Assembly (NCBI GenBank): GCA_041661005.1
Contig: JBAZVG010000001.1
Coordinates: forward strand, 295,544-359,543
Source: Minisyncoccota bacterium
GTDB lineage: Bacteria; Patescibacteriota; Minisyncoccia; Phycocordibacterales; UBA9973
Direction: 5' to 3'
Length of the DNA stretch: 64,000 nucleotides
The notes beneath the pieces are model-generated. The model worked only from the letters and a program-made list of their open reading frames with translations. It did no database searches and had not been told where the DNA came from. The position numbers and the translations under genes were made by a program. Shown here in pieces: positions 11,268-61,229 of this stretch. Within the stretch, counting starts at the first letter, position 1. The number at the start of each line of letters is the position of its first letter.

Positions 11268-12959
11268 TCAGTAAACTTCCTGCTGGTAGCATTTTTCGCA
11301 ATACACTATCTCTGGACGGCCCGCTTCGTCGGAGCTTGAGCGAGGCGAGTCAGGGGCATAATTTGTCGTAATTTCCTTCTGACATTTGGCGCAATTACGA
11401 TTCCAGAATTTATATGGACCACGGCGAATGATGCGGTCTTGATGCCGGCAATAAAAACATTTGCGAGGTGTAGGAATATTCATTTTTTTATAAAACAATA
11501 GCTCTTGATTTATAATTTTATAATTTCTGTTACAATCTATGCATCTTAAAATTTCACTAGTGATTGAATCCTGCACATCTTTTATGTGGTCGGGAATATC
11601 TTCTGGTTTCATAGTTTCCTTCCCTTCTGTCTTTTGAATATCGTCTTCCCAGCGAAAACCTTGCGCGATAGCTTCTTCCTTAGTAAGAGGCATATTGTCC
11701 TGCGCAATTGTTTCGTTATAGGCAAATGGCGCAAGTTCGGGTGGAAAATAAAGTCCATACAAATTTTTCTCTTTTAATTCGGAAATAATTCTAGTCCTAA
11801 TCGCTTCATACTCCTCTTTAGTATATCTTTTATTTAAAATTACATATTTTCCATTTCTGACACTATCACAACCAAAGCAATATTCAGAAGAACGTAGGGC
11901 AAAAGAATAATCTACGTCGTGCGATCCGGTACTCCACCATGAACCAATGACATTACTGGAAGTTCCAACAGCAACGCATTCTAATAATAATTCACTTCTT
12001 CTGCCATGACCGATCAAATCATAACAATTCTTGGTGCGTTTGTTTGAAAAAAGAAATTTAGAGTCCTCACAAAAAGATATTTCGTATGAATTATGGCAAT
12101 TCTTTGATTCAAAAATATAATCTCCAGAAACATTTATATTCCTCAGATTGCTGTTTTCTTTTCTAGGAAAACGCATTGAAAACTTTTTAAATTGAGTGCG
12201 AAATTCTTCCATATTTTTGTAACTTCCCATAATTTCTGATATTCTTTTTTGATATTCGTCTCTAGATAATGGTTCATTGAAAAAATGATGTGATTTGTGA
12301 CGCAAATTAACGCAACCAAAGCAATTTTGGCAATCTGAACAATTCAGAAGGAAAGCGGAATCTATACAGTTATCCGCATTTTGCGCCCATATAACTCCAG
12401 AACTTGTATTAACATTTATTGCCTCATAAATCTTTTCGTCTTTGTTTGCATAATACGAATCGAACGCTTCGCGACATGAGATCATCCCTCGAGAATAAGC
12501 GCATTCTTCATTATTAGGACCTGAATTAAAAATAAAATAGCAGTTCTTGTTTCCTCCCGCAAAATTTGTATACTCGCTATTTATATTTGGACCGACATCT
12601 TCGGAAGCAAAAATGCCTGCCTTTGGAACATGAATCATTAATTCTTTCATCTGATCAAAAAAAGGCTTTTGAGGATCATAATCTTCCCCATAAGAAAATG
12701 GGTCCCACTTTTCAGAAAGCCAACAGTCTTTACAATAAACGATATAAGGAGATTTTGGACCATACATTGAGATAGTAGACTTTCCGCACATTCCACAGAC
12801 GCGATTGTAAAGATTTATTTCATTCCTAAAGAGAGCGCGCCACTTAAATCTGCATTCCGGACAATTCACGGGCACTGGCACTTTCATTTTCTCGTAAAAA
12901 GAAAGGTCATCTTTTTCTAAAATGAATTTTTGTTTACATTTTTTACAATCTTGCATCAT
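11268..12959 (-). CDS. Large cysteine-rich protein (563 aa) with N- and C-terminal zinc ribbons, paralog 2
   Basis: N-terminus 'CKKCKQKFILEKDDLSFYEKMKVPVPVNCPECR'. The ribbon repeats near the C-terminus ('CIDCNRNYKIINQELLFYKKMNIPTPRKCFYCR'). Ends '...RPEIVYCEKCYQQEVY'. Start is 4 nt downstream of the ATPase-2 stop. Confidence 0.55.
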   Translation of the reverse strand: MMQDCKKCKQKFILEKDDLSFYEKMKVPVPVNCPECRFKWRALFRNEINLYNRVCGMCGKSTISMYGPKSPYIVYCKDCWLSEKWDPFSYGEDYDPQKPFFDQMKELMIHVPKAGIFASEDVGPNINSEYTNFAGGNKNCYFIFNSGPNNEECAYSRGMISCREAFDSYYANKDEKIYEAINVNTSSGVIWAQNADNCIDSAFLLNCSDCQNCFGCVNLRHKSHHFFNEPLSRDEYQKRISEIMGSYKNMEEFRTQFKKFSMRFPRKENSNLRNINVSGDYIFESKNCHNSYEISFCEDSKFLFSNKRTKNCYDLIGHGRRSELLLECVAVGTSSNVIGSWWSTGSHDVDYSFALRSSEYCFGCDSVRNGKYVILNKRYTKEEYEAIRTRIISELKEKNLYGLYFPPELAPFAYNETIAQDNMPLTKEEAIAQGFRWEDDIQKTEGKETMKPEDIPDHIKDVQDSITSEILRCIDCNRNYKIINQELLFYKKMNIPTPRKCFYCRHQDRIIRRGPYKFWNRNCAKCQKEITTNYAPDSPRSSSDEAGRPEIVYCEKCYQQEVY

Positions 12960-12962
12960 AGT

Positions 12963-15098
12963 TTATTCCAAAATCTTTCTTAGAACATCTTCCGGCACTT
13001 CCTTGGGTTTTTTGGGAACAGGAGTTGAAACAGGAGCAGGTGTAGGAATTTCAACTTGAGGTTTGGGAACTGGTGCAGGTGTTTGGACAGGTATTTTTTC
13101 TAAAATAAGATTCTTTAAATTATTCATGTCTTCCGAACTAGCAGCGCGATCCCCGCCTTGCCTAGTCGAGGCAGGTTTGGAAGTTACAGATTCCTTCATT
13201 TTATTTTTTAGGGAATCAAGCGATACTGGTGTTTCGACTGGAGCTTGATCAGCCTTAGGCTTACTCACTTGAGGCTCTTTTACCACCGCTTTTAGCGGGG
13301 TCCCTCCATCGGCGGTGATTTTATTTAAAATATCTCTCAAAGCAGTATTTTCTCGAATTCCTGAGGACGGAACGTGAACAGGTTTTACATTTACAGACTT
13401 TGCTGGGCGGTGAGGCACAGACAGAACTCTTTTGATACTTCCAAATATTCCAGGCTTCCCTGCTGGCACAGAAGATTTATCCATGGACTTTTCTATCCTT
13501 TCAGGATATCTCTCCTTTTCCTCACCCTTCGCTCTGTCTTTCTGCTGAAACTCTATACCCAAATCAGCCAATGGCTTGTAAAACGTGGACTCATCATGCC
13601 TGATCTGGTTCTCTGAACCCTTTTCTACTTTTACTTCGCCAGATTTTATTTTCGCTATGCAATCTTTGCAATATACCGCCCTGCCTGAATCAGGCTTGAA
13701 GGGAACCGTCGTTTCTTTTTTACAAAGCGAACAAATAACCGGAAATTTTTCTATATTTCCAGTTCCGCCATCATGATCATTGCCAAGCGACATTCCACTC
13801 CAATCGTTGATTTCTCTCTCCACAACTTCTTTGGATCTGCAATACAACGCGCGTGAAGATTTGATCACTTCTTCCTCTATTTTTTTATCACCAGACTTCA
13901 CCATGGGTGGCAAAGTCTTGGCAGAAAATGGACGGGACGTCACTCCATCAATCATTAATTTCAAATAAACTTTATAGTTAGGCAAATTCACAATGTCCTG
14001 CGGTGTAAATTCTGGATCAAATTCTGATTCAAGAAATTCTGCATCGTCAGAACCAACTCTAAAGACTATCATCGTGCCGACGTTACCGAAAACGGCATCA
14101 CGCACAGCTGAACTCTTTTCTACCACCAGTTGAGCGGTGTATTGGTGTGCCACTGTCAAATTCAATCTGTATTTTCTAGCTTCAGACAAAATGCCGGCAA
14201 AAGCATCTGTGACGAAATTTTGAAATTCATCCACATACAAATAAAAATCTCGGCGATTCTCTTCGGGAATACGCACACGCTCCATGGCAGCCAGCTGGAT
14301 TTTGGTAATAATCATTCCTCCGAGTAGGCCAGAGTTGTCTTCGCCAATGCGTCCTTTGGAAACGTTCACCAAGAAAATCTTGCCCTCATTCATCATGTCG
14401 AAAATATTTATCGTGCTTTTAGACTGACCGACGACATTGCGGATGATGGAAGTGGAAAGAAACTGCCCGACTTTATTTTGGATCGGCGCAATCGCTTCAT
14501 TTCGGAATTTATCTTGCCAAATTTCATATTCATGCACCCAGAAAGCCTTGATGACGGGATCTTTTAAATTAGAAATTATTTTCTGACGGTAATCTTTATC
14601 TACCAGCAGTCGGGGAATTCCGAGAAGCGTCGTGCCGGGGGTGTCGAGAAGCGCCAAAATCGCGTTGTTTAAAATATATTCCATTCGAGCACTCCAAGCA
14701 TTCGCCCAAATTTTAGTAAAAATACCCATGAGTCCCGAAGCCACCAAATGCTTGTATTGCGGATCAATCAATTCCAAAACATTGAATCCGATATGATGAT
14801 CGGCATCAGCTGGATTAAAATAGACAACATCTTTGATACGCTCTGGCGGAATAGCCGACAGAACCGCCTCAACATTTTCTCCATGCGGGTCAACCATGCA
14901 AACTCCGTCGCCATTTTTGATGTTCTGAATAATCATATTGAACATCAAGACCGATTTACCGGTACCGGACTTTCCGAGAATATAAACATGCTGACGCCTG
15001 TCTTTGCGCTTGATGCCAAAAAGCTGATTCTTGTCACGATAAGTTGAAAGACCAAGATATGTAATTTCTTTATTTATTGGTATTTCTGGAAAATCCAT
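12963..15098 (-). CDS. HerA/FtsK/VirB4-superfamily P-loop ATPase, paralog 2, with C-terminal zinc ribbon and Pro/Lys-rich tail
   Basis: Walker A 'GKSGTGKS' + 'VDPHGE'. Walker B 'FYLYVDEFQNFV'. C-terminal 'CSLCKKETTVPFKPDSGRAVYCKDCIAKI' ribbon (~13640-13745), then a low-complexity P/K/V-rich tail. 711 aa. Confidence 0.6.
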   Translation of the reverse strand: MDFPEIPINKEITYLGLSTYRDKNQLFGIKRKDRRQHVYILGKSGTGKSVLMFNMIIQNIKNGDGVCMVDPHGENVEAVLSAIPPERIKDVVYFNPADADHHIGFNVLELIDPQYKHLVASGLMGIFTKIWANAWSARMEYILNNAILALLDTPGTTLLGIPRLLVDKDYRQKIISNLKDPVIKAFWVHEYEIWQDKFRNEAIAPIQNKVGQFLSTSIIRNVVGQSKSTINIFDMMNEGKIFLVNVSKGRIGEDNSGLLGGMIITKIQLAAMERVRIPEENRRDFYLYVDEFQNFVTDAFAGILSEARKYRLNLTVAHQYTAQLVVEKSSAVRDAVFGNVGTMIVFRVGSDDAEFLESEFDPEFTPQDIVNLPNYKVYLKLMIDGVTSRPFSAKTLPPMVKSGDKKIEEEVIKSSRALYCRSKEVVEREINDWSGMSLGNDHDGGTGNIEKFPVICSLCKKETTVPFKPDSGRAVYCKDCIAKIKSGEVKVEKGSENQIRHDESTFYKPLADLGIEFQQKDRAKGEEKERYPERIEKSMDKSSVPAGKPGIFGSIKRVLSVPHRPAKSVNVKPVHVPSSGIRENTALRDILNKITADGGTPLKAVVKEPQVSKPKADQAPVETPVSLDSLKNKMKESVTSKPASTRQGGDRAASSEDMNNLKNLILEKIPVQTPAPVPKPQVEIPTPAPVSTPVPKKPKEVPEDVLRKILE

Positions 15099-19771: not shown

Positions 19772-20305
19772 ATGTCAAGGAAAGATGGCTATTCTAATAA
19801 AATATTGAAGATTTTGGGAGAAAAAACGGCTGTTTCCCTATCCGAAATTACAAAACAAATAAAAACAGAGGAGTGTTCCCAGAAACCAGAATATGCTATT
19901 ACACGTTCACTGAAAGGGTTGAAAGATGCTGGATTGATAGAGCAACTGGCTTCCCCGCAGAATGAATACGCGCGCCTTACTAAATTAGGAAGAAGAAAAA
20001 TACATAGTCTTCAATTAGATAGTAATACAACTCTCGTAAATACCACTTGGGATGGATTCTGGAGAATCATTTTACTCGACTTGCCGGAAGACAGAAAAAG
20101 TGAGCGTGAAAGTTTACGCTATCTTTTAAAAAAAGCCGGCTTCGTTTGTCTAAAAAATTCCGCTTGGATTTCCCCCTTCCCTTTTGAACACTTATTCACA
20201 AATATTAAAAAAGATTTGGGCCTTTCGACTGAAATGATAATACTAGTTACAGATAATATTGATGAGGGGTCAAGAAAAGTATTTTTGGAAAGCTTTAGTA
20301 AGTAG
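19772..20305 (+). CDS. Hypothetical protein with putative N-terminal winged-helix DNA-binding domain (177 aa)
   Basis: N-terminal ~80 aa has a wHTH-like pattern ('VSLSEITKQIK...AITRSLKGLKDAGLIEQ'). The C-terminal domain is unknown. Confidence 0.4.
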   Translation: MSRKDGYSNKILKILGEKTAVSLSEITKQIKTEECSQKPEYAITRSLKGLKDAGLIEQLASPQNEYARLTKLGRRKIHSLQLDSNTTLVNTTWDGFWRIILLDLPEDRKSERESLRYLLKKAGFVCLKNSAWISPFPFEHLFTNIKKDLGLSTEMIILVTDNIDEGSRKVFLESFSK

Positions 20306-20444
20306 ACCTGCCCCGTAGTGAACTCTGCTCTACTACTGGATGAAGAAACAAAAAAGTTTCTATTTGAAACTTTTGAAAAATAAAATTGTAAATATCGGCG
20401 TTAAATGCTATATTTTTTGGAAGAAAGTACATTAAGAATAAATT

Positions 20445-20516
20445 GGCTCTATCGTCTAATAGTTAGGACACAAGCTTCTCAAGTTTGGAATCTGGGTGCG
20501 ATTCCCAGTAGAGTCA
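20445..20516 (+). tRNA. tRNA-Glu (anticodon CUC). T-loop reads TGCGATT, i.e. G at the usually invariant U55 position.
   Basis: Hand-folded cloverleaf. Acceptor GGCTCTA/TAGAGTC (one G-T wobble); D-stem GTCT/GGAC; anticodon stem CAAGC/GTTTG with loop TTCTCAA; T-stem CTGGG/CCCAG; discriminator A. No CCA encoded. Confidence 0.7.
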
Positions 20517-20669
20517 CAAAGCACTTACATGAAAAAGAGCACACTGCTGTGCTCTTTTTCATGTAAGTGCTTTGTGAAGACGGAAGTATGTTTTTCCAGT
20601 AAGAAAAACAACTGAGTCCGGGGCTGGAAAATTTTCTTTTGACGAAAAGAAAATTATTGTGGCTCACAT
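20513..20669 (+). repeat. tRNA-Glu 3'-flanking repeat element, copy A (perfect 29-bp-stem hairpin + ~95 bp conserved tail)
   Basis: Begins inside the tRNA 3' end at 'GTCACAAAGCAC'. Hairpin CACAAAGCACTTACATGAAAAAGAGCACA-CTGC-TGTGCTCTTTTTCATGTAAGTGCTTTGTG. The following ~60 bp are near-identical to the reverse complement of 52081-52207. Confidence 0.75.
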
Positions 20670-20839
20670 AAACTTCGAATGCGAAGCATCCCTAAAACAA
20701 GCTAGATCCCAAATTGTTTTCCGACATCAACACATCATTGGCGATTTGGAACAGAAAAAGATATACTTCACAATGGACAACAGTACCACTCCGTAAGACT
20801 TGAGCGAAAGCCAAGCAGGAATCAACGAAAGGGATAGTT

Positions 20840-21397
20840 ATGGAACTGAAACCAGCACATAGAAAAGCATTCCGAGAGAACATCAGTACGGTCTGTACCA
20901 ATAGACTGTACAGGGAGGCACTGGAAAGTCTGAAAGTTGCCCCGCTTCCCACGATGTCTGTGTGGATCACTCGACAGATCTACAGAAAATGGAGTAGCAG
21001 TTGGGTCGACGAGAACAAGAGAACCTTGTGGCAGGTTCTCACTGGGGTCAGGAAGGAACCCAAAAAGTTCTACATGTCCCACCCGAAAGAGTGGGAACTG
21101 CCATACAGAGGTGGTTTTGGGAGAAAGGATCGGAATATGGTGGTAAGACTGCAGGTAAAGTGGAAAGTTGACGGAGAAGGCAAGGATGACTTCCTCTATC
21201 AGCACATTGAAGAAATTCCGATGTTTGGTGATGAGAAAAAGTTTCACTTCTTTACCACTGATATTGAAATCTTTCCACTTACGCCTCAACAAGCGGCATT
21301 CGTCGGAGCGATGCGCCTTACCTCATTTACTCCAAGTATATTCTGGGGAACTCGTGAAGACGTGATGGAGATTCAAAACAAGTTCCCCATCGTTTAG
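20840..21397 (+). CDS. Hypothetical protein (185 aa) in a GC-rich (~48%) island
   Basis: Clean ORF with composition clearly different from the AT-rich background. No recognisable motif. Confidence 0.4.
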   Translation: MELKPAHRKAFRENISTVCTNRLYREALESLKVAPLPTMSVWITRQIYRKWSSSWVDENKRTLWQVLTGVRKEPKKFYMSHPKEWELPYRGGFGRKDRNMVVRLQVKWKVDGEGKDDFLYQHIEEIPMFGDEKKFHFFTTDIEIFPLTPQQAAFVGAMRLTSFTPSIFWGTREDVMEIQNKFPIV

Positions 21398-21495
21398 GCA
21401 AGTTCGCAGTATCAAGCCGTGAGGAAGTCGCGATCCGTGACACTCGCGGCTTTCTCATTTAAATATAAGAAAATTCTTTATCTGATCGAATATCA

Positions 21496-21524
21496 GATTC
21501 CAATTCATGGTACAATGTGTCACA
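21496..21524 (+). promoter_or_regulatory. Promoter-like recurrent motif, copy F (diverged): GATTCCAATTCATGGTACAATGTGTCACAG
   Basis: Matches the GTTCCAATyTCGyAyAATTAGggTCACA family. Contains an extended -10 'TGgTACAAT'. Sits 6 nt upstream of the ATG at 21530. Confidence 0.4.
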
Positions 21525-21529
21525 GATTT

Positions 21530-22108
21530 ATGAAATCTTTTTTTAGAAAAATTCGTCACAAAACAATTACTCGAAAGTTAGTTATTCCGAAAAATGCTTC
21601 TATTCTCGACACTTCTTGCCAAGATGGTGGATTTTTATCCATACTCATGAAGAACAATGAAGGTAAGAATATTAATATTTTTGGTATTGATATAAGTTCT
21701 ACAGATGTGGAGGCAGCTAAAAAAATAATTCCAACTGGAATTTTTAAAATTACAGATAATAGTTCAATCCCATTCGGGGATAAGACATTCAATACTGTTG
21801 TAAGCTCTCTGACTCTCCACCACATGTCTCAACCCGTAAAATCATTTAATGAAATGAAGCGAGTACTAAAAGATGACGGCTCTATTTATTTAATCGATAT
21901 AATTTCAGAAAATACTGTTTTTAATTTTATCTTAAAACACATAAAGTGTCCTGAACCATATCATTTTGAGAAATTTTATTCCTTAAAAGATCTTAATGAA
22001 TTGTTGACAAAAACAAAATTAAAAATTTCCCAGAAAGTAAAAATACTAACTTTTCCGACCCCCAGTGTTGTTACACCAGTTTTATTAGTGGAATTAAAAA
22101 AGGATTGA
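21530..22108 (+). CDS. Class I SAM-dependent methyltransferase (Methyltransf_11-like)
   Basis: Motif I 'ILDTSCQDGGFLSIL', post-I acidic 'IFGIDIS', motif II/III region. The longest ORF starts at 21419, but a promoter-like motif lies inside that extension, so the 'MKSFFRK' start was preferred. Confidence 0.55.
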   Translation: MKSFFRKIRHKTITRKLVIPKNASILDTSCQDGGFLSILMKNNEGKNINIFGIDISSTDVEAAKKIIPTGIFKITDNSSIPFGDKTFNTVVSSLTLHHMSQPVKSFNEMKRVLKDDGSIYLIDIISENTVFNFILKHIKCPEPYHFEKFYSLKDLNELLTKTKLKISQKVKILTFPTPSVVTPVLLVELKKD

Positions 22109-22134
22109 AAAACTCTTTATCTGACTGAATAGCC

Positions 22135-22163
22135 GGTTCTGATCTCGCACAATTAGGGTCACA
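22135..22163 (+). promoter_or_regulatory. Promoter-like recurrent motif, copy A: GGTTCTGATCTCGCACAATTAGGGTCACA
   Basis: -10-like CACAAT; the ATG of the 22170 gene is 7 nt after the motif. Confidence 0.4.
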
Positions 22164-22169
22164 CGAAAA

Positions 22170-22736
22170 ATGCCAACCATAGATACTTTAGAAAAAATAA
22201 TTAATACATTAGACCCAGTTAATCCTTATGAGGATGATAGAATGTTGATCTTGTATTGCAGTTTATTTATTGAAGATTATGTAGAAAAAATATATTCACA
22301 AGTAAAAGGAAGCGTAAAATACAAGGATTGCAAATACTGCGGAAAAACCTCAAAACCAGGTTTTTTGAAAAAAGTAAAAGAACTAGCCGATGAAGGCTAT
22401 ATAAATAAAGAAGTTGGACATGATTTGATTATTGAAGAAATATGGAAACACCGAGGACCGGCAGTTCATGAAATAAATCTAGATGTTAGTAAAATCATTG
22501 AAACTGTTGAAAAATACACTAGAGATTCAAAAAGAGATGACCCTCATGGGTTATTAGAGAAATTGTTTAAAAATATAAGTTGGAGAAAAAAACTTCAAAT
22601 GCCTTCAATTGCGATAGTTTTTACTCTTAACCAAACACTGAGTAATATTTTAGGAACTTCCACAAATAAGAAATTAGAATTTGAGATTGATCCGAATTGT
22701 ACAAATATTCGCTCTAAAATTATTAGTTTGGATTAA
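22170..22736 (+). CDS. Hypothetical protein (188 aa)
   Basis: ORF flanked by motif copies A and B. Confidence 0.45.
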   Translation: MPTIDTLEKIINTLDPVNPYEDDRMLILYCSLFIEDYVEKIYSQVKGSVKYKDCKYCGKTSKPGFLKKVKELADEGYINKEVGHDLIIEEIWKHRGPAVHEINLDVSKIIETVEKYTRDSKRDDPHGLLEKLFKNISWRKKLQMPSIAIVFTLNQTLSNILGTSTNKKLEFEIDPNCTNIRSKIISLD

Positions 22737-22766
22737 AGGTAAATAGTTTTATTTGACTGAAAATCA

Positions 22767-22795
22767 AGTTCCAATTTCGTACAATTAGGGTCACA
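22767..22795 (+). promoter_or_regulatory. Promoter-like recurrent motif, copy B: AGTTCCAATTTCGTACAATTAGGGTCACA
   Basis: TTGACT at 22753 and TACAAT inside the motif. Oriented antisense to the following minus-strand gene. Confidence 0.4.
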
Positions 22796-22805
22796 AAAAT
22801 TAAAT

Positions 22806-22845
22806 TTAAAAAGCCAACAAACTTTTCTCCTTTCGGTGTGTTGTT
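22806..22845 (-). terminator. Hairpin terminator of the 22911-23270 gene; loop motif shared with 4201-4242
   Basis: GCCAACAA...TTGTTGGC stem with loop 'CTTTTCTCCTTTCGGTGTG', followed on the minus strand by a TTTTT run. Confidence 0.45.
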
Positions 22846-22910
22846 GGCTAGTATGAATTAATTAGTAACTCACAACTTGCTCGACATACGAGCGTGTTTT
22901 TGTAAAATTC

Positions 22911-23270
22911 TCATACGACAGTTGCATTTAGAATGTTTCCATCTTCTTTCAATGCAGTGACGGTAAGTCGAGCTCCGTCAAGTTCAAGCATCAAGGCGAA
23001 AGATCTTTCACTATTTTCTTCCACCTCAATATTCTCAACGTCGTACCCTAGCTGTCGGTAATACCCCGTGGTGAGCTCCTTTATGACATCCATAGGGGTT
23101 TCTTCTAAAAGACCTAGTCGAATGTGTTCAAAGTTTCCTGGATCAACATGATCGGCGAGTGTATTTCCGTCCGACATGTCGATTGCAGCCAAAGAAATCA
23201 TGTCTGCAACATCCAGCTCAGAACAGGCCAATTCCTGAACTAGAAACATCTTTAAGGTTAAATCTTGCAT
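22911..23270 (-). CDS. Hypothetical acidic protein (119 aa), GC-richer
   Basis: ORF between motif copies B and C. Confidence 0.4.
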   Translation of the reverse strand: MQDLTLKMFLVQELACSELDVADMISLAAIDMSDGNTLADHVDPGNFEHIRLGLLEETPMDVIKELTTGYYRQLGYDVENIEVEENSERSFALMLELDGARLTVTALKEDGNILNATVV

Positions 23271-23437
23271 ATTTTTGAAGACTAAGGGTTTATTTCAAAA
23301 GGATACTGCTAGGCATCCAGAACTGTTTAATTTAAAATATATATTATTTAGGTTATTGTCAAGTACGCCTAATTCTTGGCCTCGAGTATTAATTCCAAAA
23401 AATGAAGCATGGAAACCCTTTATATAATTCAGGATTA

Positions 23438-23465
23438 GGTTCCAATCTCGCATAATTAGTTCACA
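23438..23465 (+). promoter_or_regulatory. Promoter-like recurrent motif, copy C: GGTTCCAATCTCGCATAATTAGTTCACA
   Basis: -35-like TTCAGG, 17-bp spacer, -10 CATAAT. Abuts the stop of the 23471-24142 (-) gene. Confidence 0.4.
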
Positions 23466-23470
23466 AATCT

Positions 23471-24142
23471 TTATCTTAATTTTCCACCAATCTCAGAAGA
23501 AGGACTCTCATTTTTCTTGCCAAGATATTTAGTTTCATACCAAGCTTTTAATTCGGGTATCTCTTTAATTTGTCTTATGACTGAATCTCGATAACTTCCA
23601 GTTTCTCCAACTTCTTTATCAAGCAATTCCTGCATTAATGGCTGTTCGGCACTGATTGAAATTTTTTCAATCGGAATGTCATCAGTAAATATTACTTCAG
23701 GTAAAACAAATGGGTATCGCTCCGGATGCCGCAAGTATTCTGCAATAGGAACCTTGGAACCAATGTATTTTCCTTCTGCGATTTTCCTTTCATTATAAAT
23801 TTCTTTTCCGCCACCTTCAGAACCGATTTTATAAAGAAACTTTTCTATTTCTCCTCTATCAACAACAAAAACATTTTTATCACTTTCGTCTACTTGTATT
23901 TCAAGCAACATTCTTCCAATGTCTCTTGTGAGGTGAAACCATATATCAGGGAATTGAGTATTGTGTGTCCAATTTTTAGGCACCGGTTCCAAAAGAGCGA
24001 AAACAGCCCCAGTATCCAAAGCATCTTCATGAACTTGACCAACTCTACGAATTGCTCCCAACCCCGACTTATCACGAGATTTCCAAGAGCCCTTTTTAAT
24101 AAGAGCCCAGTTGTCTAATGAAGTATAGTGATAAACTTTCAT
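23471..24142 (-). CDS. Hypothetical protein (223 aa)
   Basis: ORF between motif copies C and D. Confidence 0.45.
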   Translation of the reverse strand: MKVYHYTSLDNWALIKKGSWKSRDKSGLGAIRRVGQVHEDALDTGAVFALLEPVPKNWTHNTQFPDIWFHLTRDIGRMLLEIQVDESDKNVFVVDRGEIEKFLYKIGSEGGGKEIYNERKIAEGKYIGSKVPIAEYLRHPERYPFVLPEVIFTDDIPIEKISISAEQPLMQELLDKEVGETGSYRDSVIRQIKEIPELKAWYETKYLGKKNESPSSEIGGKLR

Positions 24143-24200
24143 AATTCAATATTACAACTTTAATACAAAATTTCAAAACCCTTTATTCTACTAAAAATCT

Positions 24201-24228
24201 GTTTCCAATCTCGTATAATTAGATCACA
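24201..24228 (+). promoter_or_regulatory. Promoter-like recurrent motif, copy D: GTTTCCAATCTCGTATAATTAGATCACA
   Basis: Consensus -10 TATAAT. Lies 46 nt upstream of the 24274 ATG. Confidence 0.45.
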
Positions 24229-24273
24229 ATTCAGAAACTTGGCTTAAAAAATAATTAAAGCTATACTCTTACC

Positions 24274-24522
24274 ATGCAAAAAAAGATTAAAAAATTCATT
24301 GTTTTGACCATCGGAATTATTTTCATATTATTCGGACTGCTCGGATTAGTGTTACCTTTCTTGCAAGGAATTATTTTTTTAGTTATCGGCCTTATTCTCG
24401 TGTCTTTATGTTTTCCAAAAGCCCGAATGTGGGTAAATAAGCACACGCAACATCACCCTCGCTTGTTCCGCATAGCAAATAAAATAGAAATGTGGGCTGA
24501 AAAATTTATCGGAGAGATGTAA
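24274..24522 (+). CDS. Small membrane protein, DUF454/YbaN-like (82 aa)
   Basis: 'LLGLVLPFLQGIIFLVIGLILVSLCFPKARMW' resembles the YbaN 'LP.LP...F...A...F.R' pattern. Confidence 0.4.
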   Translation: MQKKIKKFIVLTIGIIFILFGLLGLVLPFLQGIIFLVIGLILVSLCFPKARMWVNKHTQHHPRLFRIANKIEMWAEKFIGEM

Positions 24523-24534
24523 TTTTTATATTTT

Positions 24535-25857
24535 TTATTTCTTCTTCTTCCATTCACTGTCCTGACGAACCAGCAACTTATTTTTATTTTCTTGGTCTAA
24601 AAGTATCGCCTCCGCTATTCGCTCCATGCGCATGCCTTGAGAGCCTTTGATGAGTATCAGATCTCGCTTTTGCACAAAAGTTTTTACAAATTCCCCCGCT
24701 TGGTATGAATTTAAAAATTCAAAAACATTTTCACCGCTCATTCCCGCTTCCAGAGCGCCAGACTTTATGGCTTGAGCTCTCGGACCTACTGTTATCAAAA
24801 CATCGTGATTTCCTTTCAAATTTTCTCCCGCAATCTTGCCAATATTTTTGTGAGCTTCTTCTGTATGTTTTCCGAGTTCCAGCATATCACCCAATATGGC
24901 GACCTTTCGACTTGATTTTTTTGATTTATTGCGCTTTATACCGCCCAGAGTATCGAGCGCAGACTCGCAGGCAAAAGGAGAAGAATTGTAGGTATCGTCA
25001 ATAATCATCGAATCATTTATGCCTTTCAATAATTTCATACGCCCCGGCGGAACGTCATAATTTTTAAGAACATCTATGGTATCTATAATATTTAATTTCA
25101 GCGCAAAAGATAAAGCGATAGATGCCAGAGACGCATAGACATGATTTCTGCCAAATACTCCGTTTATAACCACAGGCAAGCTATTTCCTTCCACATCTGC
25201 TCTAAAGACTACTCCCTCTGGTTCGCCTGAATCATTATAAAAAATACTGTCGGCAGAACCTCGGACGTCAGCCCCTTCTTTGAATCCATAAGTCACAGTA
25301 CGATGCTTGCTATTTGCCCTCATCTTCAACACATCCTCGTCGTCAGCATTCAATATAAAAGCTCCGTCTTGTTTTAAAGTTTTTATAAGCTTACTTTTTT
25401 CTTCGATCAGATTTTTGCGTGAATTGAAAAATTCAATATGCGCCGGAGTTTCCCCGATGGCCGTGATGATGACAATATCGCATTTCAACCATGAAGCAGT
25501 TTTATGCATATCTCCTTCCCTACCCACTCCCACTTCGAGAATAAGCCATTTAGGATATTTATGAGGAATCAAGAAAAGATACAAACCCTTAAAAATATTT
25601 TTCAACCATACAAAGGGGTTATTCCATCCATTCGGGATACCTAAAATAGTAAGAGGTAAACCTATCTCGCTGTTATAACTCTTCTCGCTTTTACGAACAT
25701 GGGAAACTTTAGACAGAACTGCAAAAACAGCGTCCTTGGTGGAAGTCTTGCCGACTGATCCAGTGATAGCAATAATTTGCGGTTTATATTTAGAAAGAAC
25801 TAAACGCGATTCTATCCGTAATATATGAGCTATTGTTTTTTTAAATATGGATTTCAT
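24535..25857 (-). CDS. murF: UDP-N-acetylmuramoyl-tripeptide--D-alanyl-D-alanine ligase MurF
   Basis: Mur ligase P-loop 'ITGSVGKTSTKD', central and C-terminal Mur domains. Position downstream of ftsI in the dcw cluster fits murF. Confidence 0.75.
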   Translation of the reverse strand: MKSIFKKTIAHILRIESRLVLSKYKPQIIAITGSVGKTSTKDAVFAVLSKVSHVRKSEKSYNSEIGLPLTILGIPNGWNNPFVWLKNIFKGLYLFLIPHKYPKWLILEVGVGREGDMHKTASWLKCDIVIITAIGETPAHIEFFNSRKNLIEEKSKLIKTLKQDGAFILNADDEDVLKMRANSKHRTVTYGFKEGADVRGSADSIFYNDSGEPEGVVFRADVEGNSLPVVINGVFGRNHVYASLASIALSFALKLNIIDTIDVLKNYDVPPGRMKLLKGINDSMIIDDTYNSSPFACESALDTLGGIKRNKSKKSSRKVAILGDMLELGKHTEEAHKNIGKIAGENLKGNHDVLITVGPRAQAIKSGALEAGMSGENVFEFLNSYQAGEFVKTFVQKRDLILIKGSQGMRMERIAEAILLDQENKNKLLVRQDSEWKKKK

Positions 25858-29436: not shown

Positions 29437-29679
29437 TGTGGATAACTTTTTGGACTTTGATTGTCGAAAGTTTTACAATATGGAGGTTGGTGATGGTTTC
29501 CTTCAGTTGGTTGTTTGCCTGCTGGGTGCCTCTCCGCTTCCGTGTGAGTGGGGAGGCACCCAAATTTCAATCTTCCGCATGGAAGATATCTGGCGCCTAA
29601 AAACGCCAAAAGATGTCCTCGAGAATCTGATTCCCGGGGCATTTTCATTTTTAGGAGACAATCTCTATTCTAGATTCTT
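29437..29679 (+). ncRNA. Structured element copy 1 (~243 nt). Conserved 5' (DnaA box TGTGGATAA + TTGGAC-N17-TACAAT) and 3' ends; variable central hairpins.
   Basis: The 5' 52 nt and 3' ~55 nt are near-identical to 31164-31394. Central hairpins GGGTGCCTCTCC...GGGGAGGCACCC, TCTTCCGCATGGAAGA and TGGCGCC..GGCGCCA occupy the same positions as different-sequence hairpins in copy 2. Strand unassigned. Confidence 0.4.
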
Positions 29680-29718
29680 AGTTTTCTGCACGCTTAAGGA
29701 CGTTTATGAAATCGTGTC

Positions 29719-31163: not shown

Positions 31164-31394
31164 TGTGGATAACTTTTGGACTTTGGTTGTCGAAAGTTTT
31201 ACAATATGGAGGTTCCCTTCCGGGTAGTGGTTGTGTTCCCCGAGGAGGCCCCCTCGCACCACCGAGCGCACGGTGCGAGGGGGCGAAGTAGTAGCTCTTT
31301 TGTGTCTATACACATCGGTGTCGGAAGACACCAAAAAGCGGTCCCAGAATCTTTGATTCCGGGGCCTTTGCATTTTTAGGAGACAATCTCTATT
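31164..31394 (+). ncRNA. Structured element copy 2 (~231 nt)
   Basis: Same conserved ends as copy 1. Central hairpins CCCCCTCGCACC...GGTGCGAGGGGG and GTGTCT..AGACAC replace those of copy 1 at equivalent positions (structure conserved, sequence not). Confidence 0.4.
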
Positions 31395-32862
31395 CTAGAT
31401 TCTTTGGTTTCATAGTCGGGAAAAATATAATTTCTTTTATATTTTGCGTATCAGTCAAGAACATCACGAGACGGTCAATCCCTATGCCGACTCCCCCCGC
31501 CGGAGGCATGCCATATTCCATCGCTTCTAGAAAATCTTCGTCTTTCCTCTGAGCATCTGTCTCGCCACTTTTTTTATTTTCTTCCTGTTCTTCAAAACGC
31601 GCCCGTTGATCGAGCGGATCATTTAATTCAGAAAACGCTTTGACTAACTCCACACCGCCGACGACTAGCTGAAAGGCTTCAACAAATTTAGGATTTTTTA
31701 TTTTTCGTTTTGCTAAAGGCAAATATTCCGCTGGATAATCGATAATGAAAGTTGGATTAATCAATTTCGGACGGCAAAGCTTTTTATAAATTCCATCTAA
31801 AAGTTTGGGCACAGAATCTTCTTTGTTTACAACTATGCCACATTTTTCCGCCTGAATTTTTAAATCTTCTTTAGAAATAGATTCCGCGTCAATACCGCCA
31901 TATTCTTTCAATAAATCAAAGTAGGAAAATACGGAGAATTTTTTGGAAAAATCTATATTTTGATTATTATAAGTTATTGAATCGCTTTGCTTTATTTTTT
32001 TAACTAAAATCTTAAAAATTTTCTCCACAAAAGCCATCTGTTTGTCTGCATCACTGAAACTTTCATAAAATTCAATCATGGTGAATTCAGGATTGTGGGT
32101 CATATCAATTCCCTCATTTCTAAAGTCTCGAGCAATTTCATAAATTTTCGGAAAACCAGCGACAAGCATTCGTTTTAAATAAAGTTCATCGGAAATTCTC
32201 AGATACATTTTCATATTGAGCGCCTTATGTTCTGTGACAAATGGTTCTGCCGTAGCCCCGCCATACAGAGGCTGAAGAGCTGGAGTCTCAACTTCCAAAT
32301 ATCCGTTTTCATCAAAGATTCTTCGCAATTCAGTGATGATTTTAGAACGAGTGAAAAATCTTTCTTTGACTTCGGCAGACATCAGAGCATCTAAATATCT
32401 TTTTCGAAATCTTTCTTCCACGTCCACTAGGCCATGCCACTTTTCCGGCAATGGTCGGAGACTTTTGGAAAGCATCCGCCAATCTTTCGCTTCCAACGTC
32501 TTCTCTCCCCTTTTGGTGGTAAAAAAAGCGCCTTGGATTTCTATAAAATCTCCTATGTCCACCACTTCGCTAAAGAAATTAAATTTCTCATCGGCCAAGA
32601 CATCTCTTTTGAGTAAACCCTGAAAAGTCCCAGTGCCATCATCTAACGTTATGAAGACAATAGCCCCCTGCCCGCGGATCGACATTACTCTTCCGGCGAT
32701 CCATTTAGTCTTTTTTTCTTTTGATAAATTATCAAAATCCTCCGTCGCGTCTTTTAGAGTTAGTTCTCTTTCTGAATTTGCCGGATACGGGTTCACACCC
32801 TTTTCCTCTAAGAGTTTAAGTTTTTTTAACCTAGCATCTCTAATTTCATCAATTGAAGACAT
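31390..32862 (-). CDS. lysS: Lysyl-tRNA synthetase (class II)
   Basis: N-terminal OB anticodon-binding domain. Class II motifs 1-3 ('FRNEG', 'GGVGIGIDRLVM'). Confidence 0.9.
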   Translation of the reverse strand: MSSIDEIRDARLKKLKLLEEKGVNPYPANSERELTLKDATEDFDNLSKEKKTKWIAGRVMSIRGQGAIVFITLDDGTGTFQGLLKRDVLADEKFNFFSEVVDIGDFIEIQGAFFTTKRGEKTLEAKDWRMLSKSLRPLPEKWHGLVDVEERFRKRYLDALMSAEVKERFFTRSKIITELRRIFDENGYLEVETPALQPLYGGATAEPFVTEHKALNMKMYLRISDELYLKRMLVAGFPKIYEIARDFRNEGIDMTHNPEFTMIEFYESFSDADKQMAFVEKIFKILVKKIKQSDSITYNNQNIDFSKKFSVFSYFDLLKEYGGIDAESISKEDLKIQAEKCGIVVNKEDSVPKLLDGIYKKLCRPKLINPTFIIDYPAEYLPLAKRKIKNPKFVEAFQLVVGGVELVKAFSELNDPLDQRARFEEQEENKKSGETDAQRKDEDFLEAMEYGMPPAGGVGIGIDRLVMFLTDTQNIKEIIFFPTMKPKNLE

Positions 32863-47925: not shown

Positions 47926-48225
47926 TTAGATTCTAAAATACGAAACCATATGTCCAGTTTTTCCATTCTGTTTTATTTTTCCTTCTTTTTCGAGTTGTGA
48001 AAGATATCGGGTCGCTGTTGCGTCAGATACATGAAGAAATTTCTCGACTTCGTCATTTGTAATTTTAGATTGTTTTAGAAACAAAGACATCACTTTATCT
48101 AATTTCTTTCGCTTTCGGAATTGAATTGCGTTTCGAGCTGTGATTAGAAGTTCGCGAACAAAAGACTTTTTAGTGGTTGAGTAAGGACTACCCTTGCTCA
48201 ATGTTTTATGAGTGAGTTTGTTCAC
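47926..48225 (-). CDS. Hypothetical protein with C-terminal winged-helix (99 aa)
   Basis: 'VSDATATRYLSQLEKEGKIKQ' wHTH-like. The N-terminus overlaps the repeat hairpin 48199-48220. Promoter-like motif copy E lies upstream. Confidence 0.4.
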   Translation of the reverse strand: MNKLTHKTLSKGSPYSTTKKSFVRELLITARNAIQFRKRKKLDKVMSLFLKQSKITNDEVEKFLHVSDATATRYLSQLEKEGKIKQNGKTGHMVSYFRI

Positions 48226-48270
48226 ATTTGTTGGAGTTTCCGTGTGTCGTATAAAAAGTATTTCATATCT

Positions 48271-48298
48271 TTGACCCTAATTATACGAAATTGGAACC
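48271..48298 (-). promoter_or_regulatory. Promoter-like recurrent motif, copy E (reverse orientation): GGTTCCAATTTCGTATAATTAGGGTCAA
   Basis: -35 TTGAAT, 17-bp spacer, -10 TATAAT. ~45 nt upstream of the 48225 start. Confidence 0.45.
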
Positions 48299-48332
48299 TT
48301 GTATTCAATCAGACAAAAATTTTCAAATTGTT

Positions 48333-48602
48333 TTAACGATGAGGACAGCCAGCCCAACAACAAGGCCGTCTCATTCCACCCCTAAGTTTTGATAATCCCA
48401 CATTAATTCGGCGACTTCGTGTTTCCAACTGCTTCGCAGAGGTAACCCAGCAGATCCACTCATTACGCGCGAGTGGTGTAATGTCCTTCCATGTTGCACG
48501 CGCCTTAGGATTAGCAACAAGGGCTTTCTGCAAATCTACAGGCATTTTGTGCACCACACCAGTTGTAATTTTTTTGTTGGTCATGAATTTATTATATACC
48601 AA
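48333..48602 (-). CDS. YdeI/OmpD-associated family-like protein (89 aa)
   Basis: 'WKDITPLARNEWICWVTSAKQLETRSRRI' resembles the YdeI-family C-terminal pattern. Confidence 0.4.
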   Translation of the reverse strand: MVYNKFMTNKKITTGVVHKMPVDLQKALVANPKARATWKDITPLARNEWICWVTSAKQLETRSRRINVGLSKLRGGMRRPCCWAGCPHR

Positions 48603-48611
48603 TACTTGTGT

Positions 48612-48678
48612 GAGTAAGGACTACCCTTGCTTAAGGTACACTTCGCGTGCAACATATGACGTGAGCCACAATAAAATT
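48612..48678 (+). repeat. Module-X repeat (hairpin GAGTAAGGACTACCCTTGCTT + AAGGTACACTTCGCGTGCAACATATGACGTGAGCCACAATAA)
   Basis: Near-identical to 52008-52070. The hairpin alone is also present at 48199-48220. Confidence 0.65.
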
Positions 48679-48908
48679 CTACAGGGACCGTGAGTACACT
48701 TATCGATCCTTACAGGATCAGTACACCTTTTCGAATAGTTCAAAATAAATTTTTCACTATTAACGAAAAGCTTTTCGCTTCCCTGACGCGAGTAAATCAA
48801 TTTACTCGCTTAGGGTCATCGCACAAAAAAGGCAGAAGCTGATGCTGCTATAAAAGAGTATATGGAATCGTGTAGAAAATGTGAAGATTGTGGCAAAATA
48901 AAAAGTAA

Positions 48909-49907
48909 TTAATTTGTACTATTTGCCTTTGGATTTAACTTATCATAAGTATAAAGAAACTCTGTAGTTTTTTTAAGTTCAATAAGTAAATCTCTATTCT
49001 TATGAAAACCAAAGTTGAGAGACCTCATTAAGTTATATGTATTTATGGTGTGAATTGCTCCTTTATTATTAGTTATATCTTTTCTATTTACTTTCTTGCC
49101 TGATTCTTTGTGTGGATATCGTGCAACGATTACAACTCTTGGACTAAGAATAAAGGTTTGTTCTCTAGATAAAAAATCGTTGCCATAAAACTTTTTACTT
49201 AAAGCAATATCTTGATAGGGCGTGTCTGTGGTAATAAAATCTCCTTTTCTTGAAATATATATTTTCCAATATTTTGCTGTTAATAAATTAGAGAAGCCTT
49301 GTATTTCTTTCATAATTTCCATGTGGTGAGTGTTCCCCATATCAACTGTGTATTCTTCTTTATCGGCATATTCTATCATTTGTTCTTTTGTGATTCCAAG
49401 TTCTTCCATCTCCTTTTTTGACTTATCACTCCTTCCCATATTTCTAGCAATATGTTTATTAATTTGTTTTATTAAGTGATCTGTCATTTTCTTAGACTCT
49501 TCTCTGTATTTTTTACCCTTGAAATGCAAAAACAACATACATGAAGATAAGTTGAATTTATCGCCTTCTGTTATTTGTTCATTGTCTAAAATTTTCTTTT
49601 CTATTTTAGGAAGTTCAGTAGAAAAAACACCTTCAATTTCTGCAAATTTTTCTTCTACTTTCTGGCTGATCTCATCTTCTTTTCCTGTGTGTTGGGCATA
49701 AAAGAAGTTCTCATAGCAAAACCTGCTTGGATTTGACTTTGCCTCAAATATTTTAAGTATTGGAGGTTCTTTCCCTTCTATTTTAATAGGGTAAAAACCA
49801 TTATCTTCATCACACCATTGGCGGAGGTAAAATTGGGGAACATAGTGTTGTTTTCTAGTCCTTCTTTTTATTTGATTTGGTAATAGTTGATTTTGTTCCA
49901 TCTTCAA
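48909..49907 (-). CDS. DUF4238 family protein (332 aa)
   Basis: Hallmark N-terminal 'HYVPQFYLRQW'. Confidence 0.55.
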   Translation of the reverse strand: MKMEQNQLLPNQIKRRTRKQHYVPQFYLRQWCDEDNGFYPIKIEGKEPPILKIFEAKSNPSRFCYENFFYAQHTGKEDEISQKVEEKFAEIEGVFSTELPKIEKKILDNEQITEGDKFNLSSCMLFLHFKGKKYREESKKMTDHLIKQINKHIARNMGRSDKSKKEMEELGITKEQMIEYADKEEYTVDMGNTHHMEIMKEIQGFSNLLTAKYWKIYISRKGDFITTDTPYQDIALSKKFYGNDFLSREQTFILSPRVVIVARYPHKESGKKVNRKDITNNKGAIHTINTYNLMRSLNFGFHKNRDLLIELKKTTEFLYTYDKLNPKANSTN

Positions 49908-50412: not shown

Positions 50413-50600
50413 CCATTATTGCCAAAGTTATAATAACTGCTTACCTGTATACTCTTAACCAGAGTTCCTTTATTTCTACAATCGGGGCATTCCTGTTCTT
50501 CAAGTTTAGCTCCCTTTGGAACATCAAAGCCTTTTTTTGAGAAATTGCAGTTAGTGCATTCAACATTTAGTTTATAGAATTCTGGGATTTTATCATTCAT
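50400..50600 (-). CDS. Small zinc-ribbon protein (66 aa)
   Basis: 'CTNCNF...CPDCRNKG'. Confidence 0.35.
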   Translation of the reverse strand: MNDKIPEFYKLNVECTNCNFSKKGFDVPKGAKLEEQECPDCRNKGTLVKSIQVSSYYNFGNNGWDY

Positions 50601-51116: not shown

Positions 51117-51127
51117 ATTATTTTTTA

Positions 51128-52013: not shown

Positions 52014-52207
52014 GGACTACCCTTGCTCAAGGTACACTTCGCGTGCAACATATGATGTGAGCCACAATAATTTGCTCGTCGTCACTCGCAAATTTTCCAG
52101 CCCCGGACTCAGTTGTTTTTCCTACTGGAAAAACATACTTCCGTCTTCACAAAGCACTAGAAAAAGAGCACAGCAGTGTGCTCTTTTTCTAGTGAGTGCT
52201 TTGTGAC
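52008..52207 (-). repeat. tRNA-Glu 3'-flanking repeat element, copy B (module X + conserved tail + 25-bp-stem hairpin with a 4-nt bulge)
   Basis: The reverse complement of 52081-52207 aligns to 20513-20640 with few substitutions. 52008-52070 matches 48612-48678. Confidence 0.75.
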
Positions 52208-52275
52208 CCCACAGAGAATCGAACTCTGATTACCGGATTGAAAACCCGATGTCCTAACCGTTAGACGATGGGGCC
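52204..52275 (-). tRNA. tRNA-Glu (anticodon UUC)
   Basis: Hand-folded. Acceptor GGCCCCA/TGGGGTC; D-stem GTCT/GGAC; anticodon stem TCGGG/TCCGG with loop TTTTCAA; T-stem CAGAG/CTCTG with loop TTCGATT; discriminator A. Confidence 0.8.
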
Positions 52276-61212: not shown

Positions 61213-61229
61213 AAAATATTTTCATTTTC

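Follow-up and report, generated by a model that had tools for sequence, protein, structure and literature searches.

A stretch of 64,000 nt from the genome of a Minisyncoccota bacterium (GenBank assembly GCA_041661005.1, contig JBAZVG010000001.1, positions 295,544 to 359,543; referred to as the window in the following) contains a run of small genes of mixed orientation, between which copies of one short, promoter-like repeat are found. Is this repeat a promoter reused in front of unrelated accessory genes, or does it mark the boundaries of gene cassettes? We consider the chances about even that the repeat is the terminal, att-like site of cassettes anchored at tRNA-Glu genes, with an outward promoter built into it. 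This reading draws on the anatomy of the arrays, their link to tRNA-Glu, the turnover of their content, the positions of the junctions, the reuse of cargo genes and the constraint on the repeat sequence, each of which was observed in the loci described below.

A repeat of about 55 nt in two islands

All six copies of the repeat that had been listed in an earlier note on this DNA, five of them direct and one inverted, are present at the positions given there, whereas only about 0.1 would be expected by chance. With up to three mismatches, the 20-nt core TTCCAATYTCGYAYAATTAG gave five matches against 0.09 expected (at 22137, 22769, 23440 and 24203 on the plus strand, and at 48277-48296 on the minus strand), a number that none of 100 shuffled sequences reached, and the 28-nt consensus gave three matches with 0 expected. 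A profile hidden Markov model built from all copies retrieved exactly six matches in the 64 kb, including the diverged copy (E = 2e-9 to 2e-15), and no further copy anywhere in this sequence, the copies being confined to two islands at tRNA-Glu genes. The length of about 30 bp proposed previously had to be corrected: repeat finding, which also pairs the inverted copy (48260-48323) with the direct ones, showed a unit of about 55-57 nt, with 48-57 nt in common between copies. The extended pattern is AAAACCCTTTATyTGAyTGAAwAT..GGTTCCAATyTCGyAyAATTAGGGTCACA, and the consensus of the repeat is AAAACCCTTTATTTGATTGAAAATCAGGTTCCAATCTCGTATAATTAGGGTCACA. The copies are:

21470-21526, plus strand: copy A, diverged, with the -10 hexamer TACAAT displaced by 2 nt
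22109-22164, plus strand: copy B, found by core, repeat and profile searches
22742-22797, plus strand: copy C, fits the consensus; a promoter scan calls CTGAAA-17-TACAAT at 22757-22785
23413-23467, plus strand: copy D, found by core, repeat and profile searches
24175-24229, plus strand: copy E, the final copy of the array; sequence conserved with locus L058 restarts 2 nt beyond it
48269-48323, minus strand: copy F, part of the second island; same orientation as tRNA-Glu(UUC), which lies 3.9 kb upstream

Several known kinds of element were considered and rejected. For a structured RNA or an attC-like hairpin, the possible TGATT/AATCA and ACCCT/AGGGT pairings do not covary, and in an alignment of 19 copies RNAalifold predicted no consensus structure for the plus strand and, for the reverse strand, no more than a 6-bp helix of -2.5 kcal/mol. 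The repeat is also neither an intact nor a split tRNA gene, as it is called by neither ARAGORN nor Rfam and lacks the T-stem and acceptor pairings. Only tRNAs attain the gathering score of any Rfam 15 family in the window, the repeat matching none, and permissive Rfam searches of 20300-24600 and 48100-52350 added only chance miRNA-type matches on a long hairpin. A DnaA box, a CRP-type TGTGA/TCACA site, an IHF site and an ECF-sigma promoter on either strand were dismissed by eye, as either the spacing or key bases disagree.

A variant family of the repeat was noticed in loci L063 (17003-17057, 17713-17769) and L084 (7698-7733), where GGTTCCAATTCCG and GGCTCACA are kept and the -10 box is replaced by TCCCGTTT; in L063 a TATAAT-like hexamer is found instead about 22 nt further upstream.

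Linkage to tRNA-Glu across distant genomes

A degenerate 20-mer searched against one genome per species (596 Gb) matched in 51 stretches, which is the roughly estimated chance level, and the full extended motif is present in only 8 of these 51. Of these eight, seven carry the labels Nomurabacteria, Paceibacterota or Saccharibacteria, and the eighth is a metagenome-assembled genome labelled 'Burkholderiales'. Eight more metagenome contigs with the repeat were found, several of them from 0.1-um groundwater fractions, and exact-core matches in public genomes number at most one or two per 8-kb stretch. A phage or plasmid origin gained no support, since IMG/VR yielded no real match and GenBank phages and PLSDB plasmids none at all.

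Wherever the sequence upstream is long enough, the repeat is located 0.2-4 kb downstream of a tRNA-Glu gene (CUC or UUC) on the same strand, from which it is separated by one or two variable genes. This holds for both islands of the window and for ten other independent groups of loci (L007, L009, L018, L030/53/54, L033, L056, L059, L063/64, L073/74 and L075-77), and by rough estimate such linkage would arise by chance in about 0.5% of loci. Both window islands thus have an intact, co-oriented tRNA at one boundary, as tRNA islands do. Copies of the repeat are 80-84% identical across genomes in which identity between the MurF proteins is as low as 38-39%, and tRNA-Glu(CUC) of the window and of locus L009 are 78% identical; judged by these identities, the boundary repeat appears to be as conserved as tRNA-Glu itself.

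Gene units and their turnover

Every intergenic gap between 21.4 and 24.3 kb contains exactly one plus-strand copy, in agreement with the gene layout described earlier, and the array consists of single-gene units punctuated by the repeat. The start codons at 21530 and 22170 are located 5-6 nt past the TCACA that ends the preceding copy and those at 24274 and 48225 44-45 nt past it, and copies C and D point towards the 3' ends of two minus-strand genes (22911-23270 and 23471-24142). The array is flanked by dnaK, a PaaX-like gene and tRNA-Glu(CUC) on one side and by a PGPGW membrane-protein gene, MurF and a PBP/mraZ division cluster on the other, and comprises the following features:

20445..20517, plus strand: tRNA-Glu(CUC), the anchor of the array (ARAGORN, Rfam), whose 3' end TAGAGTCACA matches the 3' end of the repeat
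20514..20577, plus strand: perfect hairpin with 30-bp arms, resembling a bidirectional terminator, whose 5' arm opens with the TCACA that ends the tRNA
20578..20691, plus strand: 'module alpha', a candidate structured RNA forming the left part of unit 1 (nhmmer, RNAalifold)
20840..21397, plus strand: cargo open reading frame (ORF) of unit 1, 185 aa, no Pfam match, raised G+C, followed by a terminator-like hairpin (21435-21449)
21530..22108, plus strand: SAM-dependent methyltransferase, 192 aa; ATG 5 nt past copy A, stop 1 nt before copy B
22170..22736, plus strand: cargo gene, 188 aa, no Pfam match, between copies B and C
22911..23270, minus strand: cargo gene, 119 aa, no Pfam match, convergent with copy C, with its own terminator hairpin (about 22816-22851)
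23471..24142, minus strand: cargo gene, 223 aa, no Pfam match, stop codon 4 nt from copy D
24274..24522, plus strand: PGPGW/DUF454 membrane protein, 82 aa, a conserved neighbour with its own TATACT-N7-ATG promoter
24535-25857, minus strand: MurF, after the PGPGW gene

By Pfam, the cargo of this first array includes one SAM methyltransferase and three ORFs without a match. The annotation of MurF homologues with 70-76% identity is Candidatus Nomurabacteria or Paceibacterota, and Nomurabacteria share a conserved interval that extends from tRNA-Glu(CUC) to PGPGW-MurF. When MurF neighbourhoods were sampled regardless of the presence of the motif, the number of copies in this interval followed the number of gene units:

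0 copies: L061, L065-69, L070, L071
1 copy: L058, L073
2 copies: L063
5 copies: the window

In L070 and L071, which have no island, the ATG of the PGPGW gene is located 2-5 nt past the end of the tRNA. L073 represents a minimal state without any cargo gene, in which the tRNA is followed by the long hairpin, module alpha and a degenerate repeat against the MurF stop codon; in L057 one copy likewise abuts the MurF stop, and only 160 nt of upstream sequence are available, so that no tRNA is in range.

Turnover of cassettes between relatives, which had been suggested as a check on the array, was indeed observed, as the intervals of the relatives contain zero, one or two copies and L058 contains its single copy along with different genes. 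The MurF protein of L058 is 90% identical to that of the window and both flanks are common to the two, yet the content between them is wholly different. The segments in common are the stretch after the tRNA (20562-20690 in the window) and everything from 2 nt past the TCACA of copy E; between them L058 has one unrelated gene, one repeat copy and, directly after the repeat, an OmdA/YdeI gene. Genes of this kind recur beside repeats (copy F of the window and L058), and other cargo genes are reused as well. The 188-aa gene has a 65% identical homologue in L075-78, behind tRNA-Glu(UUC), with the partial tRNA-like end CCCTGTAGGGTCACA before it and a repeat copy after it; the next gene again has a copy behind it. 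For the 223-aa gene, a 55% identical homologue in L084 has a variant repeat likewise facing its 3' end; another homologue is located in an hrcA-grpE-hsp20-dnaK operon without the repeat (L085/86), which indicates that not all cargo families are exclusively borne by cassettes.

tRNA ends, repeat ends and module alpha

The repeat terminates in TAGGGTCACA, which corresponds to the 3' terminus of tRNA-Glu, whose genes end in TAGAGTCACA, TGGGGTCACA or TAGGGTCAC; the exact core in common is only 8-10 nt long. The hairpin and module alpha follow the ...GGGTCACA of tRNA-Glu in six genomes and the ...GGGTCACA of the repeat in L056 and L030/53/54. By this comparison, the tRNA end and the repeat end appear to be interchangeable as predecessors of hairpin and alpha. 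Units join at most 2 nt from the 3' end of the repeat, and in L077 a partial 3' end of tRNA-Glu (CCCTGTAGGGTCACA) is found at a unit boundary. Aligned with the 3' half of tRNA-Glu(UUC), i.e. the T-arm and acceptor, the repeat scores 27 compared to 14.5 +/- 3.0 for shuffled sequences (p ~0.0025), and none of its alignments with tRNA-Glu(CUC), tRNA-Ser or tRNA-Val was significant. A copy of the tRNA-Glu 3' terminus seems a better-supported explanation for the conserved 3' end of the repeat than the operator of a shared regulator, which the earlier note had suggested.

The likeness to a tRNA half could also mean that the repeats are passive scars, that is, decaying partial 3' halves of tRNA-Glu (old attR sites) left by past integrations and of no present function. 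The plainer partial tRNA end in L077 would fit this explanation, as would the scattered partial tRNAs typical of tRNA-anchored islands (bioRxiv 10.1101/2020.12.28.424599). The identity of the repeats between genomes with highly divergent MurF proteins indicates selection or recent spread rather than decay, and the 25 nt at the 5' end as well as the inserted -10 box are conserved without a counterpart in the tRNA, so that we regard scars as very improbable.

The hairpin that follows both tRNA-Glu genes of the window has perfect 30-bp arms, a CTGC loop and flanking runs of A and T. Module alpha, about 115-130 nt in length, is predicted from seven copies to form 32 base pairs, 10 of which show compensatory changes (RNAalifold), and matches no Rfam family. 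Hairpin and alpha together are found in the window at 20514-20691 (plus strand) and 52205-52032 (minus strand), and in L033, L056, L058, L073/74, L075-78 and L030/53/54. Module alpha is a candidate for a new structured RNA linked to tRNA-Glu and the cassettes.

Another hairpin was seen in L077 (676-735), 400 nt upstream of tRNA-Glu(UUC), with a 9-bp stem (CCCTATGCG...CGCATAGGG) and a loop containing TAGTTCCAAT; TTCACC and a small hairpin come next, and the whole echoes the TTCCAAT...GGGTTCAC arrangement of the repeat.

Promoter or cassette boundary

The promoter-like character attributed to the repeat was confirmed in sequence: a -35 box TTGAAw is separated by a 17-nt spacer from a -10 box yAyAAT, and transcription would likely start near the CA of TCACA. 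The consensus TTGAAA-17-TATAAT agrees with sigma-70 hexamers and spacing and is followed by a TAGGGT discriminator. It does not appear to be simply the generic promoter of this organism, an explanation we rejected: the repeat is absent from housekeeping promoters within the 64 kb, and the tRNA-Glu genes of the window use TTGTAA/TTGCAA-17-TATATT/TATTAT.

An alternative explanation would be that the repeat is a promoter only, i.e. a strong sigma-70 site that overlaps the operator of a common regulator, has repeatedly been placed before accessory genes and has no role in recombination. Its canonical geometry, the A/T-rich upstream part and the GGG of the discriminator agree with this, and of 12 copies detected with the profile or by repeat finding, and not with the exact core pattern, 10 keep positions A2 and T6 of the -10 box, diverged ones included. 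In at least five units (those following copies A, B, F, L077a and L054a), moreover, the start codon is found 3-6 nt past TCACA, and reuse of near-identical promoters before unrelated genes has been documented (PMC3575422). Other observations do not agree with a promoter alone. The next gene is co-directional with the repeat in only 12 of 24 cases and convergent in the other 12; in L057 and L073 the repeat directly adjoins the MurF 3' end; a terminator-like hairpin comes immediately after the motif in L056 and L030; and the L063 and L084 variants retain their flanks but have no -10 box at that place. The best-conserved portion of the repeat is its 17-nt spacer, which sigma-70 recognition does not need. 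The co-orientation with tRNA-Glu, the tRNA-like 3' end and the position after stop codons are left unexplained as well: the upstream gene is co-oriented with the repeat in 17 of 24 cases and opposite in 7, and its stop is usually located 1-30 nt before the repeat. We consider a promoter without any further role rather unlikely. Taken together, the co-orientation with tRNA-Glu, the even split in the direction of the next gene, the proximity to stop codons and the existence of variants lacking the -10 box argue that the repeat is a boundary of cassettes, or a site of the att type, into which a promoter is built, and not simply a regulated promoter.

A proposed mechanism and the search for a recombinase

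According to the mechanism that we propose, cassettes would pile up in one orientation directly downstream of tRNA-Glu in CPR (Candidate Phyla Radiation) bacteria of the Nomurabacteria/Paceibacteria type. A full unit would consist, in this order, of the terminator-like hairpin, module alpha RNA, one or two cargo genes and the 55-bp repeat at its right-hand end, and shorter units of cargo and repeat only. The common core (TAGGGTCACA; GGGTCACA) is the likely point of joining, either to the tRNA or to the previous repeat, and joining at this core would build up tandem, co-oriented arrays, in a manner similar to recombination between att sites at tRNA genes or to integron cassettes with their attC boundaries. 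The outward sigma-70 promoter of the repeat (TTGAAw, 17 nt, TAyAAT, TAGGGT, start near CA), if it fires, would transcribe the next arrival, and owing to its place at the right end an insertion need not silence the DNA downstream. Hairpin at the left end and promoter at the right end would in this way preserve termination of the tRNA transcript and downstream expression after insertion. That this amounts to an undescribed cassette system of CPR bacteria/Patescibacteria, with site-specific insertion at the 3' end of tRNA-Glu or at a prior unit by an enzyme acting in trans, perhaps guided or assisted by the alpha RNA, is a tentative suggestion that we would rate as possible, on balance doubtful.

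The recombinase that would perform the joining would presumably be encoded elsewhere. No integron integrase or attC geometry had been noticed earlier, and Pfam scans and RNAalifold bore this out. The cargo consists of a methyltransferase, OmdA, an ArsP permease, a gene resembling hydrolases in L056 (read by eye) and genes without assigned function, none of them a recombinase; one cargo gene gave a weak, sub-threshold HEPN/AbiU2-like match.

In locus L072 a large serine recombinase (12526-13878; Resolvase, Recombinase and Zn-ribbon domains) is encoded about 300 nt from a diverged, partly palindromic site resembling the repeat (AGGATTCCAATGTAGTTTTTTATACATTGGTCAC, 12165-12200), upstream of PGPGW-MurF. 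This locus has no tRNA-Glu within 10 kb and no second copy of the site, and the enzyme is a lead only.

Several findings weigh against a cassette system of this kind. Pfam searches detected no tyrosine or serine recombinase, transposase or integron integrase among about 60 ORFs of the window, nor, apart from the lead in L072, among 24 ORFs near the repeat in other loci; for a scan of 30 ORFs this negative applies to the matches listed, which were the first 25 of 42 families. Since no recombinase was found, the mechanism of joining is one that we infer. Furthermore, the repeat has no clear dyad symmetry, unlike the core sites usual for recombinases, and its similarity to the tRNA is partial, being restricted to the 3' 35 nt and dependent on a gap at the -10 box (about 5 nt). 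L060, the only other contig with an identical MurF, has the same array and hence shows no variation at the strain level, and a search for circular cassettes among 17 short contigs found terminal overlaps in none of them. The YdeI gene of L058 follows a repeat without having one of its own, which simple insertion of cargo plus repeat does not predict. The promoter component is affected as well, as TATAAT-N7-ATG promoters of their own precede PGPGW and several cargo genes and the putative start site in L056 and L030 leads straight into the hairpin mentioned above.

The failure to detect a recombinase in the scanned ORFs would be expected if tRNA-Glu and the repeat were merely flanks for swaps by homologous recombination after DNA uptake, without any dedicated enzyme. 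The pattern of conserved flanks with content replaced wholesale, as between L058 and the window, would fit such swaps. They would not explain why the 55-nt sequence itself is conserved, why joining takes place so close to the 3' end of the repeat, or why tRNA and repeat ends are interchangeable, and we regard this possibility as improbable.

We think no better of a non-autonomous transposable element, similar to miniature inverted-repeat transposable elements (MITEs) or to IS200/IS605, which would be made up of hairpin, module alpha, optional cargo and repeat and would insert 3' of TCACA by means of a transposase provided in trans. A unit of about 250 bp without cargo does exist in L073, insertion directly 3' of TCACA in always the same orientation would be accounted for, and no duplication beyond the TCACA core was seen; as the right end of the element is again TCACA, even tandem accretion would be possible. 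Terminal inverted repeats are missing, however, and so is a conserved subterminal hairpin, the TGATT/AATCA pairing being broken in many copies (RNAalifold and inspection). In addition, the ORFs scanned with Pfam include no Y1 or DDE transposase, and many units, such as units B-E of the window, lack the left end.

Comparison with known systems

Integron arrays, including clusters of attC sites lacking integron integrases (CALIN), resemble the arrays described here in that single-gene units are each followed by one site in constant orientation near the stop codon, that the cargo is diverse and includes some reversed genes, and that the content varies between relatives. In contrast to attC sites, the repeat is conserved in sequence and not in structure and has no R''/L''-L'/R' palindrome; no IntI was detected, the place of attI is taken by the 3' end of tRNA-Glu as anchor, and each site has a promoter of its own, integron cassettes being for the most part without promoters and transcribed from Pc.

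In elements that target tRNA genes, the distal direct repeat is usually identical to the 3' part of the tRNA over about 15-50 nt. Genomic islands anchored at tRNA genes with tandem att repeats, such as the tycheposons of Prochlorococcus with their partial-tRNA remnants (bioRxiv 10.1101/2020.12.28.424599), are similar to the arrays in having an intact tRNA at one end and co-oriented repeats of its 3' terminus further inward, in the successive stacking of units, in their accessory and defence cargo and in turnover confined to the island. Their counterparts here are much smaller (0.25-1.3 kb with one or two genes) and carry no integrase or replication module, and instead of a plain partial tRNA there is a 55-nt element with an exact core of 8-10 nt, weak extended similarity and an embedded promoter.

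Mobile or reused promoters (PMC3575422) and the outward promoters of IS elements likewise place near-identical sequence before unrelated genes, across distant taxa and pointing outward at the end of an element. The repeat, in contrast, is oriented like the tRNA irrespective of the direction of the next gene (co-directional in 12 of 24), is found at the 3' side of the preceding gene, and has variants without a -10 box.

Xer modules, such as integrative mobile elements exploiting Xer recombination (IMEX) at dif and the pdif modules of Acinetobacter plasmids, encode no recombinase, are bounded by sites of about 28 bp and use an enzyme of the host. They are similar to the present units in being small, recombinase-less, bounded by repeated sites and able to form tandem arrays; the sites described here are all direct and not alternating, and are linked to two tRNA-Glu genes and not to the replication terminus. 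A dif/Xer site was rejected for the repeat because of this linkage to two tRNA genes and because it has neither the 11-6-11 architecture nor an inner palindrome: its 29-nt block GGTTCCAATCTCGTATAATTAGGGTCACA matches the dif site of B. subtilis at 12 of 28 positions, again without an inner palindrome (compared by eye).

No description of this arrangement was found in the searchable literature. Both tRNA-anchored islands and cassette arrays are known kinds of system, and the comparison points to the repeat-punctuated arrangement at tRNA-Glu as an integron-like one that has previously not been described. CPR bacteria have tiny genomes with few recognisable mobile elements, and their acquisition of accessory and defence genes is poorly understood. 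A compact site of gene collection recurs here at tRNA-Glu anchors in lineages as far apart as 38-39% MurF identity indicates. If joining is site-specific, this would be a new cassette platform with a very short, portable att site plus promoter, and the order of tRNA-Glu, hairpin, alpha RNA, cargo and TAGGGTCACA-ended repeat provides a search image for the missing recombinase. If the repeat is only a reused promoter, it would be among the most strongly conserved promoter-sized DNA elements across such distant lineages. A true cassette system would be an analogue of integrons built from different parts, in which each insertion is insulated by its own terminator and promoter, and a dedicated recombinase or a role of alpha RNA, if demonstrated, would make it more than a variant of tRNA islands and cassette arrays.

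The second island and other features of the window

The second island contains, in addition to copy F, an OmdA/YdeI gene, a winged-helix gene, DUF4238 and restriction-modification genes; its landmarks are:

48333..48602, minus strand: OmdA/YdeI-like cargo gene, 89 aa, stop 10 nt before copy F
52203..52275, minus strand: tRNA-Glu(UUC), the anchor of the island, followed by the hairpin (about 52146-52205) and a second module alpha (52146-52032)

An upstream ORF of 14 codons (48222-48266, minus strand) begins 3 nt past copy F. With its final codon and stop it overlaps, in the sequence ATGTGA, the GTG start of the winged-helix gene 47926-48225 (minus strand), which suggests translational coupling.

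Further repeated and non-coding sequences were observed in this island. A 64-nt direct repeat (48611-48674 and 52007-52070, 95% identical) brackets 3.3 kb with DUF4238 and four small ORFs, and contains a second recurrent hairpin, TTGAGCAAGGGTAGTCCTTGCTCA, of which there are three copies (48174-48204, 48607-48637, 52003-52033) ending in ..CTCACA; related hairpins (GTAAGGACGGTCCTTAC) flank the gene and its variant repeat in L084. 'Module beta' (about 48675-48842, minus strand) is a non-coding segment of about 170 nt conserved with L056, where it is located after the tRNA-Glu terminator and before the hydrolase-like cargo gene (read by eye); modules beta and alpha have the 3' signature ATTGTGGCTCACRT-N10-GCGAAG in common. 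The two tRNA-Glu genes themselves, together with about 150 nt downstream, form a 230-nt inverted repeat (20437-20669 versus 52055-52283, 79-92% identical, 31 kb apart), which could in principle serve as substrate for inversion of the segment between them.

A defence-type cluster extends from 42.2 to 47.3 kb downstream of tRNA-Ser(CGA), with genes for a NUDIX protein, a SMODS-type nucleotidyltransferase, an MvaI/BcnI-family endonuclease and an XRE controller, and with a fusion in which a LexA-N-terminal/S24 peptidase is joined to an N6/N4 DNA methylase. Between the XRE and winged-helix genes, the segment 47400-47870 shows raised G+C and only short overlapping ORFs, with no obvious gene.

Elsewhere in the window, a non-coding duplication of about 240 nt (29448-29686 versus 31174-31411, 92-98% identical, 1725 nt apart) flanks an ORF of 156 aa between mraZ and a class II aminoacyl-tRNA synthetase gene, and in the matching interval a block of small genes was gained or lost between L065 and L066. 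Finally, three to four diverged direct repeats (60394-61800; 126-173 nt, 67-81% identical) in and beside the 902-aa ORF 61230-63938 are probably repeated protein domains.

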